Sequence record: MZ234040.1
Direction: 5' to 3' (one strand)
Origin: Escherichia phage vB_EcoM-G3G7
DNA: 64,000 nucleotides
Both the position numbers and the translations under genes were made by a program. Below, one piece after another: positions 213 to 34,453 of the stretch (position 1 is its first letter; the number at the start of each line of letters is the position of its first letter). Below the pieces are notes generated by a model. That model was not told the origin of the DNA. It was given only the letters and a program-made list of their open reading frames with translations, and made no database searches.

Positions 213-3200
213 TTAGAATTTAAAATATTTACTAATTTTGCGAGCAATTTTAGTAAAGAAAGGAGTTTTCAATTCTTTAATTTCTTCACTCATTTCCTGA
301 ATAGCCTTAATTAAAAGAGCATTCACAGCAGAGTTAGAAATTGTCAGAACATCAGATCCATCAACTTCAACTTTAGATACAGCTTCCGGTAATTCCTTTT
401 CAAGGTCCTGAGCAATAATACCAACTTCACGTTTAATAACACTACGGTCTTTAATAGACTTAACTTTATCGTAAATATAAACTTTCAGTCGACATACTTT
501 TTCAAGTGCTCCGTTTTCTAGCTCTTTTTTATTAATCTTAAGACGACCATCGGAACGAATATACACATCGTTAAAGTTACCATTACCAGGAGAATAGAAA
601 GTACCGTCGTAATGAAATTCAAATACCGCGTTAGGGTGTCCAGCCGCTGGTGATGCCTCCGCAGATCCAACACGAATAATTGCTTGCCCCCAATTGTTAG
701 GGACACGACGAATACCAAGATCGACGGCAGTTACAAACCCTTGATTGGTGATTACACTTCTTCCTTTGAGAATCGGATAATAACAATCCTGTGAAACATA
801 ACCATGATCGACGAATATTGGTGCTTCTACTCGCCATTGGTTGCCCCAATCACCCGGTTGTCTAGCAATCCATCCAGAACCGTTAATGTGTACACGATCG
901 CGGTTAACGTTAACCATTGCGATATTTTGTGGATTTAGCGAAATCTCACCATTGTTTGTGATATGTACTGCCGCCTGAGTAGCATAGCTATAAAATGCTA
1001 GCGAATTATCAGCACCACCCTTACCAATATACCAGTTACCACTCCCGTCTACGTCACCACGAATATGCAAAGCATTACCAGCAGTTGTTGATAATACAAT
1101 AGAATCACCCGGACGTTTAATAATCAATCTACCTTCGGATTCAATTTCACCAAAAAATTTAGTCTTAATTGCACCAGTCGCTAAAGTACGTTCAGTGGAA
1201 AAATGAACGCCTTTGCTGTCTTCTAACTGAATAATGTTATCGCGCGCATTATTACTATCACCCCAATGATTAAACCGGAAATAATCACGTGATTGCTTAC
1301 CACCCGCTTCAAACGTCAGCGTACCTTTACTTAAATTAACATCACCGCTAAAGGTAGCAGCAAGAGAATCACGTTCTAATTTTAAAACGTTAGCACCACT
1401 AGTACCACCTAAAGTAACATCACCAGTTCTCAATTCATAACGGAAAGGTCTATTTGTATTATAGTTTCCATTTTGATCATCTTCGTTGGTGGAAAGAATA
1501 TAAAGATTCTCTCCATAAGTACGGAAAATTGTACCAAAATTTCCGGCATACATACGGAATGCATTAGATGAGCGAAATTTAACTTCTGTTTTAAAAGTGG
1601 TAGTGTTATTAAGGTTAACAGTAGAGTTAAAATTGGTAGGAGCACCGAAGTTAACTGCGCCATTAAAATCTTGTTGAGCTGTCCATGTGTGGCGACCATC
1701 TTCAAGAACAACACGGCGGACTGTGCAAGTTCTATTTCCAGAATTACCGAACACACGAACGACAAAATAACGGTAGTTTGTCTGGGATACAGTACCGCGC
1801 CAAACCTGAACAGTACGCCCTGTGCTAGTGTGTTCGCTAGGACCAACGGAAAACATAACCAGGTTTCCGTCAATCGTCCCCCAATCCATATTTGCTGGCA
1901 TATTCTTTATTTTGTTCAAAGGAACACTAAACATACTACCAGGGACAAAATCAAAGGTTTGCCAATCTAGCTCCGCTAATTGAGTTTTAATACCACCCAT
2001 ACCCAAAGTAATTGGCAAAGAGTAAGATGTATATACTTCGTTCCATGTACCCCACGCGCCACCGGTATATGCACGCTCAAAAATACGATCGCGAGTAGTT
2101 GCACCCGTTCCGGCAGTAGTAAATTTTTGGAAAATAGCACCGCCAGAAGCACGCTGTTTAACTTCCAGCAAACCAACAATAACAGTCGGCAAACCTTCAC
2201 CGGTAGGACAGTTAATAACGGCATCAGTGCCTAAAATATTATATAACCCAGGAGTTTTAAAATCATTCAGATCTCCATCATAGAAAGTCGCTGGTGTGAC
2301 ATTACCGACTTGTTGCCACGGTCCCCATTTAGGCGCGGAAGCATCCCACGCGGCAGCAAGACAACGAGTATATACAACACCAAATCTGGTTGTATATCTT
2401 TGTGTACGAGAATAGTTTCCACCTTCATATACTTCCAAAAGACCTTGAGCTGACGACCCCTTTTCTGGGAAATTTCTGTCAAAGGTAGCAATGGAATTTG
2501 AACTATTTCGCCACAAACCAAAGTGTTCAGCGCCTCCTAGATCATTAAGATCAATTGTTGTTGACAGTGGACGAGTACCGGATTGAATATTCTGGGAAAT
2601 TTCTGTCAAAGGTAGCAATGGAATTTGAACTATTTCGCCACAAACCAAAGTGTTCAGCGCCTCCTAGATCATTAAGATCAATTGTTGTTGACAGTGGACG
2701 AGTACCGGATTGAATATTTCGCCACACACTCCACGGACCATTTACTCCGTTCCATGTAGCAGTCAAGGAACGAATATAAACATTTCCGTATCTAGTTGTA
2801 TATCTCTGAGTACCAGCAAATTGACCGGCCACAAATACTTCTAGCACACCTACAGCATTTTCTTCTGGAAATTTATTTGCTGGTTGAGCGTTGGTTGAAG
2901 TTGCTTTCGACCAAACTCCAAGATATTCTTCAACAGGCCCATACGTATCTAAATTAGCATCAGTAGGTAATTCGCCATTATTTTTTATAAATGTTGTGCT
3001 ATTGACATTTATGTCAGATGGAGTTAGCGTGATATCTTTTGACCCATCAAAGGATATACCATTAATTTTTCGTGCTGTTTTTAATTTCGTTGCAGTTGCA
3101 GCGTTACCTGTTAAATTTCCAATTATATTTCCATTAACAGTTAAAGAACCATCAATTGTTCCTCCATATTTTAAACCTAATTCTATAACACTACCTGAGT

Positions 3201-3335: not shown

Positions 3336-3986
3336 TTAATAATAGCCGAAATCTTGAACAGAATCTTTAATTACGATTTGGTCAAATCGTGGAACGTGTG
3401 AAGGTTGAGATGCAGGATTCTGTGAAAAAAGGTTTGGCGCAGTTAAATTTCCTGTCATAGTGTCTCCAGAGCGTAATACCCTAGAGTTTGCATTTGCTGT
3501 AACAGTATTTATTGCTCCATCAACATAATCTTTGCGAGTAACATCAGATGCTGCGGAAGGAGTAGATGTAACAGTTACCGATGGAGCCGTTACAGCCCTG
3601 GTAAATGTTGTCAAACCTTCTGGCGTAATAGTAATTTGTCCAGTAGTGATTTCACTACCTGCTGGTCTAAAACTAATACCGCCAGAAGAGCCACCAACTA
3701 CAAGAGTATTACCAGTGCCGCCACCAGAACGAATTCGGATAGGGGTTTCATTATTACTTAATTGAAGATAACTATTTACCCCGTAATTAATAGTAATTGG
3801 ACCGGCGTAAGTACCACCATTAGCTTTAGAAACGAAATCGTTATCAGCTGCCTGCGGTTTATTATATTCTGAATATATTTTAAATGATTTGTAGAGTACA
3901 TCGTCACCGGCTGAATTCAATGGAAAATTTCCTTGATGCCAAATGACAGATCCACCCACAGTTGAACCTACTTTTAAATCAGCCAT
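3336..3986 (-). CDS. 36: long tail fiber distal connector gp36
   Basis: 216-aa ORF in conserved position between genes 35 and 37; T4 gp36-like size. Confidence 0.85.
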
Positions 3987-4009
3987 TATATGCCCCTTTA
4001 TTTTAATAT

Positions 4010-10072: not shown

Positions 10073-10342
10073 ATGGCTAAAAAAGAAATGGTTGAATTTG
10101 ATGAAGCTATCCATGGCGAAGACTTGGCTAAATTTATTAAAGAAGCATCTGATCATAAACTGAAAATTTCCGGTTATAATGAACTGATTAAAGATATTCG
10201 AATTCGTGCCAAAGATGAACTTGGCGTTGATGGTAAGATGTTTAATCGTCTATTAGCTTTGTATCATAAAGATAACCGTGATGTGTTTGAAGCTGAAACT
10301 GAAGAGGTAGTTGAACTTTATGACACAGTTTTCTCTAAATGA
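10073..10342 (+). CDS. dsbA: double-stranded DNA binding protein DsbA
   Basis: 89-aa ORF MAKKEMVEFDEAIHGEDLAKFIKE... matches T4 DsbA. Confidence 0.9.
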   Translation: MAKKEMVEFDEAIHGEDLAKFIKEASDHKLKISGYNELIKDIRIRAKDELGVDGKMFNRLLALYHKDNRDVFEAETEEVVELYDTVFSK

Positions 10343-10658
10343 CATTCGTCCGGTCGATGAGACCGGTCTTTCAGAAAAAGAACTTTCAATTAAGAAAGAA
10401 AAGGATGAAATAGCAAAGCTTCTTGATCGTCAAGAAAATGGATTTATTATTGAAAAAATGGTAGAAGAGTTTGGAATGAGTTATCTTGAAGCTACGACAG
10501 CATTCTTGGAAGAAAACTCTATTCCTGAAACTCAATTTGCTAAATTTATTCCTTCGGGGATAATTGAAAAAATCCAGTCAGAAGCTATTGACGAAAATCT
10601 TTTACGTCCTTCTGTTGTTCGTTGTGAAAAAACTAATACATTAGATTTTCTACTATGA
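10320..10658 (+). CDS. 33: late transcription co-activator gp33
   Basis: MTQFSLNDIRPVDETGLSEKE... matches T4 gp33 (112 aa); ATG at 10320, ORF-track start 10311 is a TTG. Confidence 0.9.
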   Translation: MTQFSLNDIRPVDETGLSEKELSIKKEKDEIAKLLDRQENGFIIEKMVEEFGMSYLEATTAFLEENSIPETQFAKFIPSGIIEKIQSEAIDENLLRPSVVRCEKTNTLDFLL

Positions 10659-30143: not shown

Positions 30144-30509
30144 ATGAACTACATCAACTTTGAACGTAAATATGTTTCTAATGGTATTGCAGGTTCTATT
30201 GATACTATTTGCCTTTGGAAACATCAAAATGGATCAGTATGCGAAATTGAGCAGTATATGACTCCTAATTACGTTTATATGCGATTTGAAAACGGTATCA
30301 CGGTTTCAATCACGATGGAAGGTTCCAACTTTAAAATCGCTCTGGATGATGATTTCCGTGAACGCGATTTAGGGACTCATCCTTGCTGGAATGGCGTTAA
30401 TCGCAAGCTTTTGGTTAAAACTTGGATTCGTCATATTCTGAGTAACAGAGCTAAACCTGAGCATCTTGAAGCAATCTTTGATGTAGTTCTTAACGAATTT
30501 GATATTTAA
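30144..30509 (+). CDS. early protein, unknown function (121 aa)
   Basis: TTGGAGAATAAAATG context; ORF-track start at 30132 is a TTG. Confidence 0.6.
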   Translation: MNYINFERKYVSNGIAGSIDTICLWKHQNGSVCEIEQYMTPNYVYMRFENGITVSITMEGSNFKIALDDDFRERDLGTHPCWNGVNRKLLVKTWIRHILSNRAKPEHLEAIFDVVLNEFDI

Positions 30510-30549
30510 AATAAATGAGGGGCTTTGGCCCCTTACTGAGGAAAATGTT

Positions 30550-30837
30550 ATGTTTATGACTACTTATTTTGATACCCGTAAAAACTTCTGCGAAGTAGTT
30601 TTCTCAAAGGCGCCTAAAGACCTTCCTGCACATTTGCAACCTACTAGCGAATCGATTAAAAACTACGTTAATGTAGTCTGCCCTTTAGAGTTCCGTACTG
30701 TAAATGGGCGCGATACTTTAGCTATCACTAAACTCAATCGCGAAATTGACATTGATCCCTCAATTGCACGTGAAATTAATAGTTCTGATATTAATGGCGG
30801 TAATGTTAAATCGCACGGTTTTCAGATGAGGTTTTAA
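30550..30837 (+). CDS. early protein, unknown function (about 95 aa)
   Basis: GAGG upstream of ATG 30550; preceded by hairpin AGGGGC-TTTG-GCCCCT. Confidence 0.5.
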   Translation: MFMTTYFDTRKNFCEVVFSKAPKDLPAHLQPTSESIKNYVNVVCPLEFRTVNGRDTLAITKLNREIDIDPSIAREINSSDINGGNVKSHGFQMRF

Positions 30838-31034
30838 TGAAATTCTTTTTAGGTCAAACTGTTGAATTAAAGGGAGTTGGTATACCTGGATTAATTTCTA
30901 AGGTTCTACCTCCATTTAAATGGAGTGGTATTCAAATAAAAGAGGCTTATATTGTTTCCTGGGTAGATGGAAATGAAGACCTTCGTATGGGTGATGAATT
31001 ATCTCCTATCTACGGATTAAAGGAAATAGTATGA
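30837..31034 (+). CDS. small early protein (65 aa)
   Basis: ATGA overlap with the upstream stop. Confidence 0.5.
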   Translation: MKFFLGQTVELKGVGIPGLISKVLPPFKWSGIQIKEAYIVSWVDGNEDLRMGDELSPIYGLKEIV

Positions 31035-31237
31035 ATATAATTAATAAGATTTTTGGAATTCAGTACATTAAGGTCACATATAAAGTAACAGATAAAAATC
31101 CATATACTGATGAACACGAAGAACCACAAGTTAAGTCTATTATATTAGAAAAGGACCCTAACTGGCCAGTTGAATTTCGTCTTCCTTGCTATGGTCATTG
31201 GGCTGATGTTGAAATTATAAGCATTGAAAATGTCTGA
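31031..31237 (+). CDS. small early protein (68 aa)
   Basis: ATGA overlap with the upstream stop. Confidence 0.5.
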   Translation: MNIINKIFGIQYIKVTYKVTDKNPYTDEHEEPQVKSIILEKDPNWPVEFRLPCYGHWADVEIISIENV

Positions 31238-31688
31238 GTTAGAGATTAGAAGCAATTTTAGGTGGCCATCATGTGCATTAAGTAATTTCGCCCATTGGCC
31301 TTTCGTTATGGATGGCATTCAATTTGGAGGTCTTGAAGGATTCCTCCAAGGATGCAAAGTGAAAAATGTTGAACAACAACGTCGTATATTTGGGTTATCC
31401 GGGCTTGCCGCCCAACAAGCTGGAAGGTCTTATGCAAGAGCTCAGGACCGTGGGACCCTCTTCTGGCTTGGAGTTCCATTTTCAAGATACTCCCCGGCGT
31501 GGAAAGAATTATACACAAATGCATATTTTGAAGCAGCGATCCAAAACAAGGGCTTCCGTGATGCATTACAAGCCTCGAAAGGAAAAGTTTTGAAGCACAG
31601 CATGGCTAGTGGTCTAACAAAAGATGATACAATACTAACCGAAGCTGAATTTATTGATGTGTTAAACCTATTAAGAGACTCTCTATGA
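31224..31688 (+). CDS. YbiA/NADAR-family-like protein (putative N-glycosidase / ADP-ribose processing domain)
   Basis: 154-aa ORF; LSNFAHWPFVMDGIQFGGLEGFLQGCKV resembles the signature SNFA.WP...DG......EH.FQA.K of E. coli YbiA / DUF1768 proteins (recalled, not searched). Confidence 0.5.
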   Translation: MKMSELEIRSNFRWPSCALSNFAHWPFVMDGIQFGGLEGFLQGCKVKNVEQQRRIFGLSGLAAQQAGRSYARAQDRGTLFWLGVPFSRYSPAWKELYTNAYFEAAIQNKGFRDALQASKGKVLKHSMASGLTKDDTILTEAEFIDVLNLLRDSL

Positions 31689-32539
31689 AGCCTACTATTT
31701 TAACTGATATTGATGGAGTATGTTTAAGCTGGCAATCAGGCCTTCCTTATTTTGCTCAGAAATATAATCTTCCGTTAGAACATATTTTAAAAATGATCCA
31801 GGATGAGAAATTTATTTCTCCTGGTAAACTATTTAATTGCGATGAAGAACTTGGCGTTAAGCTAATTGAAAAATACAATCGTTCGGATTTTATTCGATAC
31901 TTGTCTCCATATAAAGATGCCCTGTGTGTAATTAACAAATTAAAAGAAGATTATAATTTTGTAGCTGTTACAGCATTGGGTGATTCTATTGACGCTCTGC
32001 TGAATCGTCAATTTAATTTGAATGCTCTTTTTCCTGGTGCCTTCTCAGAAGTACTGATGTGTGGTCATGATTCTTCAAAAGAAGAGTTGTTCAAAAAGGC
32101 AAAAGAAAAATATAACGTAATTTGTTATATTGACGATCTCGCTCACCACTGCGATCACGCAAGTGAAATATTAAATGTTCCTGTTTATTGGATGGCTCGA
32201 GGGGAACGTGACAGTATTCCAAAAACTGCACAGCGAGTTTATACATGGAATGATGTAGAGAATAAGCTTTTTCCATCGAAGGAAAATAAAGAAAGTTTTG
32301 ATAGTGAAAAAGTTATAAAAGATGTAATTGAGAAGATGATTAAAAACGATTCTTTTCGTTGGAACACTACTTGGAGAACTCCTGGATTTAATCCTTATAA
32401 TCCATATCATCCATATTATACACACTCACATCAGATGCATCCATTCCATACGTGGAGTTATATTAAGCCTGGCGACGCAGGGTATTTTAATAGACTTACT
32501 AGTGGTAGTGGTGATAATATTTTCCAAGGAGCATTCTAA
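31685..32539 (+). CDS. HAD-superfamily hydrolase-like protein with Pro/Tyr/His-rich C-terminal tail
   Basis: 284-aa ORF; N-terminal ILTDIDGV (HAD motif I DxDG); C-terminal PGFNPYNPYHPYYTHSHQMHPFHTW low-complexity region. Confidence 0.5.
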   Translation: MKPTILTDIDGVCLSWQSGLPYFAQKYNLPLEHILKMIQDEKFISPGKLFNCDEELGVKLIEKYNRSDFIRYLSPYKDALCVINKLKEDYNFVAVTALGDSIDALLNRQFNLNALFPGAFSEVLMCGHDSSKEELFKKAKEKYNVICYIDDLAHHCDHASEILNVPVYWMARGERDSIPKTAQRVYTWNDVENKLFPSKENKESFDSEKVIKDVIEKMIKNDSFRWNTTWRTPGFNPYNPYHPYYTHSHQMHPFHTWSYIKPGDAGYFNRLTSGSGDNIFQGAF

Positions 32540-32808
32540 TGTTTGTTGTTCACACTATTTATGAAAATGAAGGTAATACTACACGTGATTACGGTCACGT
32601 AAATCAATTTTTTAGATGCAATCCAGAATTCCGAGCTCAAAAAGACGAACGAATTTTTAAAAAATGTGTAGAGCAAGGTTTCATTTACGTCAAGCACTGG
32701 ATGCAAGGAAATAAAGTTAGAACCACGTACCACAGGTCTTTGACTGAGCTTAATGATGAATTGATTTATAATAGAGCTGTAAACCAAACTCTAAAGGATG
32801 AACAATGA
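32539..32808 (+). CDS. small early protein (89 aa), upstream of DNA ligase
   Basis: ORF with TAATG coupling to the upstream stop and ATGA coupling to gene 30. Confidence 0.5.
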   Translation: MFVVHTIYENEGNTTRDYGHVNQFFRCNPEFRAQKDERIFKKCVEQGFIYVKHWMQGNKVRTTYHRSLTELNDELIYNRAVNQTLKDEQ

Positions 32809-34268
32809 TTCTTAAAATTCTGAACGAAATAGCATCTATTGGTTCAACTAAGCAGAAGCAAGCAATTCTTGAAAAGAATAAAGATAATGAATTGCTTAAA
32901 CGAGTATATCGTCTGACTTATTCTCGTGGGTTACAGTATTATATCAAGAAATGGCCTAAACCTGGTATTGCTACCCAGAGTTTTGGAATGTTGACTCTTA
33001 CTGATATGCTTGACTTCATTGAATTCACGTTAGCTACTCGGAAATTGACTGGAAATGCGGCAATTGAAGAATTAATTGGTTATATTACTGACGGTAAAAA
33101 AGATGATGTTGAAGTTTTGCGTCGAGTGATGATGCGAGACCTTGAATGTGGTGCTTCAGTATCTATTGCAAACAAAGTTTGGCCAGGTTTAATTCCTGAA
33201 CAACCTCAAATGCTCGCAAGTTCTTATGATGAAAAAGGCATTAATAAGAATATCAAATTTCCAGCCTTTGCCCAGTTAAAAGCTGATGGAGCTCGGTGCT
33301 TTGCCGAAGTCAGAGGTGATGAATTAGATGACGTTCGTCTTTTATCACGAGCTGGTAATGAATATCTAGGATTAGATCTTCTTAAGGAAGAATTAATCAA
33401 AATGACCGCTGAAGCCCGCCAGATTCATCCAGAAGGCGTGTTAATTGATGGCGAATTGGTATACCATGAGCAAGTTGAAAAGGAGCCAGAAGGCCTAGAT
33501 TTTCTTTTTGATGCTTATCCTGAAAACAGTAAAGCTAAAGAATTCGCCGAAGTAGCTGAATCACGTACTGCATCTAATGGCATCGCCAATAAATCTTTAA
33601 AGGGAACCATTTCTGAAAAAGAAGCACAATGCATGAAGTTTCAGGTCTGGGATTATGTACCGTTGGTAGAAATATACGGTCTTCCTGCATTTCGTTTGAA
33701 ATATGATGTACGTTTTTCTAAACTAGAACAAATGACATCAGGCTATGATAAAGTAATTTTAATTGAAAACCAGGTAGTAAATAACCTAGACGAAGCCAAG
33801 GTAATTTATAAAAAGTATATTGACCAAGGTCTTGAAGGTATTATTCTCAAAAATATCGATGGATTATGGGAAAATGCTCGTTCAAAAAATCTCTATAAAT
33901 TTAAAGAAGTAATTGATGTTGATTTAAAAATTGTAGGAATTTATCCTCACCGTAAAGACCCTACTAAAGCAGGTGGATTTATTCTTGAGTCAGAGTGTGG
34001 AAAAATTAAAGTAAATGCTGGTTCAGGCTTAAAAGATAAAGCCGGTGTAAAATCGCATGAACTTGACCGTACTCGCATTATGGAAAACCAAAATTATTAT
34101 ATTGGAAAAATTCTAGAGTGCGAATGCAACGGTTGGTTAAAATCTGATGGCCGCACTGATTACGTTAAATTATTTCTTCCGATTGCGATTCGTTTGCGTG
34201 AAGATAAAACTAAAGCTAATACATTCGAGGATGTATTTGGTGATTTTCATGAGGTAACTGGTTTATGA
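32805..34268 (+). CDS. 30: ATP-dependent DNA ligase
   Basis: 487-aa ORF MILKILNEIASIGSTKQKQAILEKNKDNELLKRVYRLTYSRGLQYYIKKWPKPG... with adenylation lysine motif FAQLKADGARC; matches T4 DNA ligase. Confidence 0.95.
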   Translation: MILKILNEIASIGSTKQKQAILEKNKDNELLKRVYRLTYSRGLQYYIKKWPKPGIATQSFGMLTLTDMLDFIEFTLATRKLTGNAAIEELIGYITDGKKDDVEVLRRVMMRDLECGASVSIANKVWPGLIPEQPQMLASSYDEKGINKNIKFPAFAQLKADGARCFAEVRGDELDDVRLLSRAGNEYLGLDLLKEELIKMTAEARQIHPEGVLIDGELVYHEQVEKEPEGLDFLFDAYPENSKAKEFAEVAESRTASNGIANKSLKGTISEKEAQCMKFQVWDYVPLVEIYGLPAFRLKYDVRFSKLEQMTSGYDKVILIENQVVNNLDEAKVIYKKYIDQGLEGIILKNIDGLWENARSKNLYKFKEVIDVDLKIVGIYPHRKDPTKAGGFILESECGKIKVNAGSGLKDKAGVKSHELDRTRIMENQNYYIGKILECECNGWLKSDGRTDYVKLFLPIAIRLREDKTKANTFEDVFGDFHEVTGL

Positions 34269-34453
34269 AAGCTTACTTAGAAACAATTGTCATTGCTCAA
34301 AAAGAAGGTGGAGATGTTTCTACTTCTGTATCACAAGTCATTCTCGAATTTGTAGATGCATACGCTTATAATAAATTCACAGAAACATTTGATGCCTATG
34401 AAAAAGGTCCAAAGTTTGAAATATACCGTACTCTCTTACCACTAGATTATTAA
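34265..34453 (+). CDS. small protein (62 aa) downstream of ligase
   Basis: ATGA overlap with the gene 30 stop; followed by a terminator. Confidence 0.5.
   Translation: MKAYLETIVIAQKEGGDVSTSVSQVILEFVDAYAYNKFTETFDAYEKGPKFEIYRTLLPLDY

Follow-up and report, generated by a model that had tools for sequence, protein, structure and literature searches.

Why should a small phage protein that opens with the catalytic signature of the HAD phosphatases end in a long tail rich in proline, tyrosine and histidine, and what might the two parts do together? The question is raised by an open reading frame (ORF) of Escherichia phage vB_EcoM-G3G7, located within the 64,000-nucleotide stretch of sequence record MZ234040.1 analyzed here (the window). 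The ORF spans positions 31685–32539 (+), has an ATG start, encodes 284 amino acids and, in the ORF listing, begins MKPTILTDIDGV; as an earlier note made from the sequence alone had described, it opens with HAD motif I. Sequence comparison identifies it as the T4 gene 30.2 ortholog of a Tequatrovirus genome: the product has 92% amino acid identity with T4 gp30.2 (NP_049815, 278 amino acids) and matches PHROG 420 (E-value 2.5e-90), and the coding sequence lies upstream of the DNA ligase gene with neighbors that reproduce the T4 order 30.4-30.3-30.2-30.1-30 (DNA ligase)-alt.1-alt. Full-text literature searches under several names and accession numbers returned no function or tail description for gp30.2; PHROG 420 is annotated 'unknown function', and automated annotations name some relatives 'HAD-superfamily hydrolase' or '5' nucleotidase'. 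We think it probable that the protein consists of a HAD phosphomonoesterase core, likely directed at (deoxy)nucleotides, and a disordered docking tail, with a substrate class and a docking role that we infer.

The core and its cap occupy residues 1–199 (31685–32281; this and all other features of the ORF are on the plus strand). In an AlphaFold2 model the predicted local distance difference test score (pLDDT) exceeds 93 throughout this region, which folds as a Rossmannoid core; four helices are inserted into it immediately behind motif I, the arrangement of an NT5C-type C1 cap. The helices of the insertion (residues 16–26, 32–40, 46–50 and 54–65) lie between strand 1 and strand 2, and the cap as a whole, residues ~14–86 (31724–31942), includes the invariant W16, S18, Y64 and S67 and the near-invariant F43. 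All four HAD motifs are present, with conservation judged from two homolog alignments (n=61 and n=65), the second agreeing with the first. Motif I, of the form DxDx(T/V), is D8-I-D10-G-V12 (31706–31720), and D8 and D10 are invariant in both alignments. Motif II (S/T) is at the end of the strand F92-V-A-V-T96 (31958–31972; strand 91–96 in the model), with T96 kept in at least 90% of sequences. Motif III (K/R) is the invariant K132 (32078–32080), and motif IV (DD) is D150-D151 (32132–32137), conserved at 90% or more in one alignment (A1) and invariant in another (A4).

A Foldseek comparison against the PDB ranked mouse cytosolic 5'(3')-deoxyribonucleotidase cdN first (2jao, E 1.5e-8). A weak profile alignment (E 0.33) pairs the cap residues W16, F43 and Y64 with F20, F46 and Y67 of mouse cdN (2jao chain), which probably line the nucleoside pocket of cdN. 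The relationship is distant, with only 17–20% identity to cdN/mdN (NT5C; 2jao, 2i7d, 1q92) and to the deoxyribonucleotidase (dNT)-like 3bwv of S. epidermidis, all of which lack the ~85-residue tail of the window protein. The window protein itself gives no HAD model above threshold in Pfam or NCBIfam and no match to Pfam NT5C (PF06941) at E ≤ 1, short of the gathering score, and because this curated threshold is not reached we do not file it in that family. When 65 family members are scanned singly, 17 match Pfam Hydrolase PF00702 (best 8.3e-9), eight match HAD_2, 16 have weak NT5C matches (best 3.7e-5) and three match HAD_PNKP. The core is thus predicted to be a HAD-superfamily phosphatase that resembles the 5'(3')-deoxyribonucleotidases most. 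The earlier note had proposed a HAD-like hydrolase, which the predicted fold and motifs I–IV bear out, and had suggested comparison with the 5'(3')-deoxyribonucleotidases, which did provide the best weak matches.

If the model is correct, residues 1–199 would act as a Mg2+-dependent phosphomonoesterase in which D8 is the nucleophile and D10 the general acid/base, T96 and K132 bind the phosphate, D150/D151 bind the metal, and the four-helix C1 cap closes over the active site. A large cap in HAD enzymes argues for a small substrate, and the placement of the C1 cap over the active site therefore implies a small-molecule rather than a macromolecular one. By analogy with the 5'(3')-deoxyribonucleotidases, the likeliest would be a (deoxy)nucleoside monophosphate or else a phospho-sugar of similar kind. 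There is a functional precedent for a phage-encoded dNT-like HAD enzyme acting on the nucleotide pool, in that Dtm of Bacillus phage PBS1 is a dTMP phosphatase (PMC12697855); PBS1, however, uses Dtm to build deoxyuridine DNA (dU-DNA), no such role is known or obvious in T4-like phages, and the two enzymes are likened by description.

The company that the gene keeps could be read as pointing to a different kind of substrate. Of the 76 IMG/VR loci that contain a 30.2 homolog, 71 have a DNA ligase gene downstream, at a distance of no more than 350 nt in 61 and directly abutting in 18 (a 30.1 homolog is present in 24), suggesting that 30.2 is the most stable companion of the ligase gene across the T4 superfamily. 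This could be accounted for if gp30.2 were a DNA-end 3'-phosphatase similar to the HAD domain of PNKP, cleaning nicks for the adjacent ligase, and there are weak matches both to HAD_PNKP (E 0.17), the model also matched by the three relatives noted above, and to PHROG 415, polynucleotide kinase (E 0.0039). Several observations make this quite improbable. First, PNKP-type HAD domains lack such a cap and so admit polynucleotide ends; in the model of gp30.2 the active site is covered by a complete helical C1 cap, at the high confidence of the rest of the core. Second, the HAD_PNKP match scores 12.5 bits against a cut-off of 27.6, and the ORF has no kinase domain. Third, PseT of T4 already has that activity (gene table, bioRxiv 10.1101/2025.11.20.689424 supplement). 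Finally, the ligase synteny is suggestive only, because T4-like gene order is conserved in general, so that synteny alone is weak evidence for a shared pathway. In a distant locus (L077) a HAD homolog with 28% identity (2142–3071, +) is near a clamp-loader-like ORF (MSFKNKLWTEKYRP...) and not next to a ligase gene.

The last ~85 residues of the window protein are predicted to lie outside the catalytic fold, and would comprise one helix, a disordered aromatic and proline-rich linker, and a short C-terminal peptide. The helix, residues 207–220 (32303–32344), opens the extension with a pLDDT of about 87, and is followed by a tail predicted to be disordered, residues 221–284 (32345–32536; pLDDT 40–63). 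Within this is the Pro/Tyr/His-rich repeat segment PGFNPYNPYHPYYTHSHQMHPFHTW, residues 233–257 (32381–32455), recognizable from its sequence, from its variation among alleles and from a 9-nt tandem repeat at 32389–32416 (Tandem Repeats Finder). The composition is as unusual as the earlier note had supposed: the best 26-residue stretch of the tail is 62% P+Y+H+W, the highest among all window plus-strand ORFs of at least 80 amino acids, with the runner-up at 46%. The note was right that there is a low-complexity segment but not that the protein ends with it, as 27 further residues (SYIKPGDAGYFNRLTSGSGDNIFQGAF) follow; these include the C-terminal peptide PGDAGYFNRLTSGSGDNIFQGAF, residues 262–284 (32468–32536), which corresponds to PGGIEYLYNRPTCGDNIFQGAF in T4. 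A second AlphaFold2 model, seeded with the canonical long-tail homolog P0041 and a tail-enriched alignment, has the same architecture, with a long helix at 194–223 (pLDDT above 90), then disorder, and a four-residue helical turn at EYLN. Packing of the tail on the core is absent in both AlphaFold2 runs.

A tail of this kind could be the product of a frameshift in a single sequence, and the earlier note had named this as a way in which its description might fail. The evidence points the other way. The 855-nt gene is 100% identical in 13 Tequatrovirus genomes and matches 522 phage records overall (394 of them at 90–95% nucleotide identity over the whole gene), T4 has a homologous tail, and every indel that separates the window gene from T4 is in frame (15, 3 and 6 nt), the 15-nt one being an insertion in the repeat segment. 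Within Tequatrovirus the tail is nonetheless a divergence hotspot. Over its last 155 nt, 55 of 499 records reach a nucleotide identity of 95% or more and 357 fall to 60–80%, and the ratio of nonsynonymous to synonymous substitution rates (dN/dS) for window versus T4 rises from 0.06 (core) through 0.19 (linker) to 0.35 (tail) (overall, 0.04–0.06 for the core and 0.27–0.35 for the tail). The tail is therefore real, fast-evolving, in-frame coding sequence, and the window tail a minority allele of it.

The variation is of two sorts. First, translated Tequatrovirus alleles differ in how many (N/H)PY and YTHP(Y/F) units make up the aromatic segment, from FNPYNPYQTHPFQTW to FNPYNPYYTHPYNPYNPYYTHPYHMNPFHTW; the linker repeats would expand and contract through replication slippage. 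Second, there are two C-terminal versions, GGIEYLYNRPT and GD(A/S)GYFNR(L/F)T, which occur in mosaic combinations with the repeat variants. The window allele and T4 gp30.2 agree in core, in tail architecture and in their place between 30.3 and 30.1/30, and differ in that the window allele has a five-residue insertion (YTHSH), extra His residues, and DAGYFNRLTSGSG where T4 has GIEYLYNRPTC. The earlier note had suggested that the tail might be a metal-binding module, and the window allele does have five His in residues 233–257, all within 242–255. T4 has only two in the equivalent stretch, however, other Tequatrovirus alleles vary, other genera have few or none, and nowhere in the tail alignment is the His spacing conserved. 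The His-richness is peculiar to the window allele, and the family as a whole does not conserve His; a metal site shared across it is therefore unlikely, and a His-rich metal-binding module is to our minds a highly improbable account of the tail.

What is conserved in the tail becomes apparent at larger distances. There are several informative features. First, the 100 closest homolog clusters fall into 57 that extend 45 residues or more and others that stop soon after the core, so that tail length is bimodal and not continuous. Second, 43 of the 57 long tails contain one of three related motifs, (I/L)EY(L/W)xxQPT, L(R/K)A(Y/F)Y or YxLLN/ALLGM. Third, the motif is no more than 14 residues from the C-terminus in all 43 except P0026 (28 residues), and GTGIEYLxxQPT in particular lies 6–14 residues from the C-terminus in 18 long-tailed homologs. 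Fourth, in an alignment of 15 class-A tails one Pro and one Glu are invariant and W, Y, P and T positions are conserved at 90% or more, in proteins with cores only about 50% identical. This pattern reads as the signature of a disordered region bearing short linear motifs, and we therefore favor docking over pure drift: the tail would tether the enzyme by docking it to some other protein or assembly inside infected cells, and a role as an interaction module is plausible.

Tail sequences of this type were not found as a portable module, as a profile of 15 tails matched only two short fragments among 5.8 billion proteins. There are, on the other hand, relatives in which the core is joined to other sequences. 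P0014 (302 amino acids, from a Logan contig) is an apparent fusion of a tail-less 30.2 core and the 30.1 DUF3045 domain (PF11243) in one ORF, and could be a natural fusion or an effect of assembly or a frameshift. Distant 30.2-like HAD domains are fused to other modules in P0163 (591 amino acids), P0174 (365 amino acids) and P0105 (430 amino acids). The N-terminal region of P0163 matches a PHROG annotated 'DNA polymerase'; the C-terminal region of P0174 has a GRHRTVAAYQLG motif, its ParB/sulfiredoxin-type likeness being by eye only; and P0105 has a 220-residue tail ending NLRATF, as in class B tails. The extra domains of P0105, P0174 and P0179 have no Pfam or PHROG match.

Four considerations weigh against a phosphatase with a docking tail. 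First, roughly 40% of homologs have no tail, and the tail is therefore accessory to catalysis and not needed for core activity. Second, GIEYL..QPT, the best-conserved tail motif, is degenerate in the window allele (DAGYFNRLT), which weakens the case for a strict docking peptide. Third, no partner was found, and the tail motif occurs nowhere else in the collections searched; a degenerate DNA scan of IMG/VR for GTGIEYLxxQPT returned only six contigs, all already known to carry 30.2 homologs. Fourth, the gene lacks a fitness phenotype both in the media compared (LB and M9) and on a DarTG1 host (bioRxiv 10.1101/2025.11.20.689424): in transposon-insertion sequencing (Tn-seq) of T4, 30.2 is non-essential, with insertions at 72 of 72 sites (supplementary table 6 of the same study), and its log2 fold change (log2FC) is −0.10 (p 0.61) in the LB versus M9 comparison. 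The first and last of these, together with the fast evolution, the variation in repeat number and the predicted disorder, are also what would be expected if the tail were functionless drift, a tolerated extension arising from stop-codon movement and repeat slippage. We regard this as unlikely. Although fast, tail evolution has a dN/dS of about 0.3, still below 1; motif positions are kept between genera despite the divergence of the cores; the motifs are at a fixed distance from the C-terminus; and the distribution of tail lengths is bimodal.

If the tail does dock the enzyme, the question is where. One scheme, for which we have low expectations, is that it places a nucleotide-specific phosphatase on the T4 replication or repair machinery (through the ligase, the gp45 clamp or some other protein of the replisome), where the enzyme would adjust nucleotides locally, or dispose of a toxic phosphorylated by-product, at the site of DNA synthesis and sealing; that the tail is hypervariable within the genus would then reflect adaptation of the contact or escape from a host factor that recognizes it. 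A specific form of tethering would be to the gp45 sliding clamp, with a C-terminal peptide similar to the PCNA-interacting peptides (PIP-like) bringing the phosphatase to the replisome beside clamp-bound ligase. GLDFLF in a flexible loop carried by T4 DNA ligase binds gp45 (PMC6212786), and the gp45-binding peptides resemble the 30.2 tail in being short hydrophobic and acidic motifs placed in flexible sequence, at the C-terminus or close to it (PMC6212786). GIEYLY of T4 gp30.2 fits the loose pattern of SLDFLFG, SLDFLYEAND and TLDFLL, the C-terminal peptides of gp43, gp55 and gp33, and of GLDFLF (ligase loop), and the T4-like ligase-loop variants GIEWMM, NDLFGMFEE and SALLDD resemble the tail motifs GIEYL, NDLRAYYGE and TALLGM. 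The location is also suitable, as the tail motif is in a disordered region near the C-terminus (pLDDT below 65) with a helical turn at EYLN in the model. The tail peptides that would make the contact are KPGGIEYLYNRPT in T4 and KPGDAGYFNRLTSG...QGAF in the window, with KPGGIEYLYNRPTCGDNIFQGAF and KPGDAGYFNRLTSGSGDNIFQGAF likewise candidates; for the ligase peptide KKEPEGLDFLFDA the Kd with gp45 is about 10 uM.

These likenesses were evaluated with a position-specific scoring matrix (PSSM) constructed from 55 clamp-motif instances and applied to the 57 long tails, each with 500 shuffles. Twelve of the 57 tails have a shuffle p of 0.05 or less, about three being expected by chance. Nonetheless, the scores are low (about 6 bits for the best; the median shuffle p is 0.26), and neither the T4-type tail (−2.3, p 0.38) nor the window tail (best −6.2, p 0.91) fits the motif profile. 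Furthermore, the third hydrophobic position of the clamp motif is N, T, K or D in most class A tails, the conserved QPT that follows the tail motif has no counterpart in clamp motifs, and the I-E-x-L pattern is lost in the window allele. A clamp-binding peptide is thus not supported for the window and T4 alleles, the visual likeness failing the PSSM and shuffle test; since the resemblance lacks statistical support, we keep the clamp tether as a rival of low probability.

The gp45 gene is outside the window, and among window plus-strand ORFs of at least 50 amino acids the pattern [LIM][DE][FY][LWM][FYL] has only two matches, the gp33 terminus and the ligase loop. The ORF at 10311–10658 (+) ends in TLDFLL, which is the clamp-binding terminus of gp33, and the LDFLF loop of the window ligase is at 33495–33509 (ligase residues 231–235). 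In 71 T4-like ligases (loci L003–L079) the loop position is kept and the motif varies, with LAFLFG, LFSMFDE, LDDMFGD, GIEWMM, SALLDD and SLAGFMGDDDD among the versions, which suggests that the clamp contact of the ligase co-evolves by lineage.

The gene immediately upstream offers another possible partner. The earlier note had described this ORF as NADAR-like, and its T4 counterpart, gp30.3, is indeed AdfN, a NADAR DNA ADP-ribosylglycohydrolase that removes ADP-ribose from DNA (PMC11257639). The 30.2 start codon overlaps the stop codon of 30.3 in the sequence ATGA at 31685–31688, and a 30.3 homolog directly abuts 30.2 in 18 of the IMG/VR loci; gp30.2 might therefore work with AdfN, processing a phosphorylated product derived from the ADP-ribose in counter-defense against DarT. 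Three observations run counter to this. First, on a DarTG1 host the log2FC of 30.3 in Tn-seq is −7.25 (adjusted p 0), whereas that of 30.2 is −0.12 (p 0.61) (bioRxiv 10.1101/2025.11.20.689424). Second, AdfN alone is sufficient (PMC11257639). Third, of the 76 loci, 36 have a 30.3 homolog and 40 keep 30.2 without one. The neutral Tn-seq scores indicate that T4 gp30.2 is not a required partner of AdfN and has no detectable role in these laboratory conditions; the idea is largely refuted for DarTG1, and we give very little credence to it or to a functional link with the NADAR gene. Gene 30.4, immediately upstream of adfN, is also depleted on the DarTG1 host (log2FC −1.79, adjusted p 0.014; bioRxiv 10.1101/2025.11.20.689424), which could reflect either polarity on adfN or a role that 30.4 itself plays. 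RB69 is sensitive to DarTG1 due to a truncated AdfN (PMC11257639), and in the collection examined here the 30.3/adfN homolog of one locus (L014, IMGVR_UViG_2974741249_000001, 3636–4004) is 122 amino acids long, compared with about 155 in close relatives.

The neighborhood of 30.2 is compact. Gene 30.3/adfN is at 31230–31688 (+; Pfam Phage_30_3, E 7.7e-70, with the ATG start taken from the T4 annotation), gene 30.1 (DUF3045) is at 32539–32808 (+; Pfam DUF3045, E 2.9e-64), and gene 30, the ATP-dependent DNA ligase, is at 32805–34268 (+; T4 annotation). At the downstream end of 30.2 the stop codon overlaps the start of 30.1 in TAATG at 32537–32541, and this and the upstream overlap are compatible with translational coupling. 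From 30.6 to alt.1 (30499–34453, +) each stop codon overlaps or abuts the start codon of the next gene without a break in the series, with junctions at 30837/30837, 31031/31034, 31685/31688, 32539/32539, 32805/32808 and 34265/34268. A scan of 30800–33000 found neither terminator-like sites nor promoter-like sites in excess, which agrees with a single polycistronic run. An overprinted gene or regulatory signal in the tail DNA was likewise considered and rejected, as there is no other plus-strand ORF of at least 40 amino acids, no promoter excess and no terminator. Gene 30.3 contains, in another frame, a 75-residue ORF (31366–31593, +) whose T4 counterpart is annotated 30.3' ('internal translation in a different reading frame').

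T4 is the reference phage, and about half of its genes, 30.2 included, have no known function. On the strength of the predicted structure, T4 30.2 would gain a confident enzymatic class, that of a capped HAD phosphomonoesterase, probably a nucleotidase. What is new beyond this is modest, and consists of the description of the tail as a putative disordered, repeat-variable module with conserved terminal peptides, and of the strength of the synteny with the ligase gene. If the tail is a localization signal, 30.2 would provide a small, concrete case of enzyme tethering in the phage replication factory; if it is not, 30.2 would be one more auxiliary gene of nucleotide metabolism.

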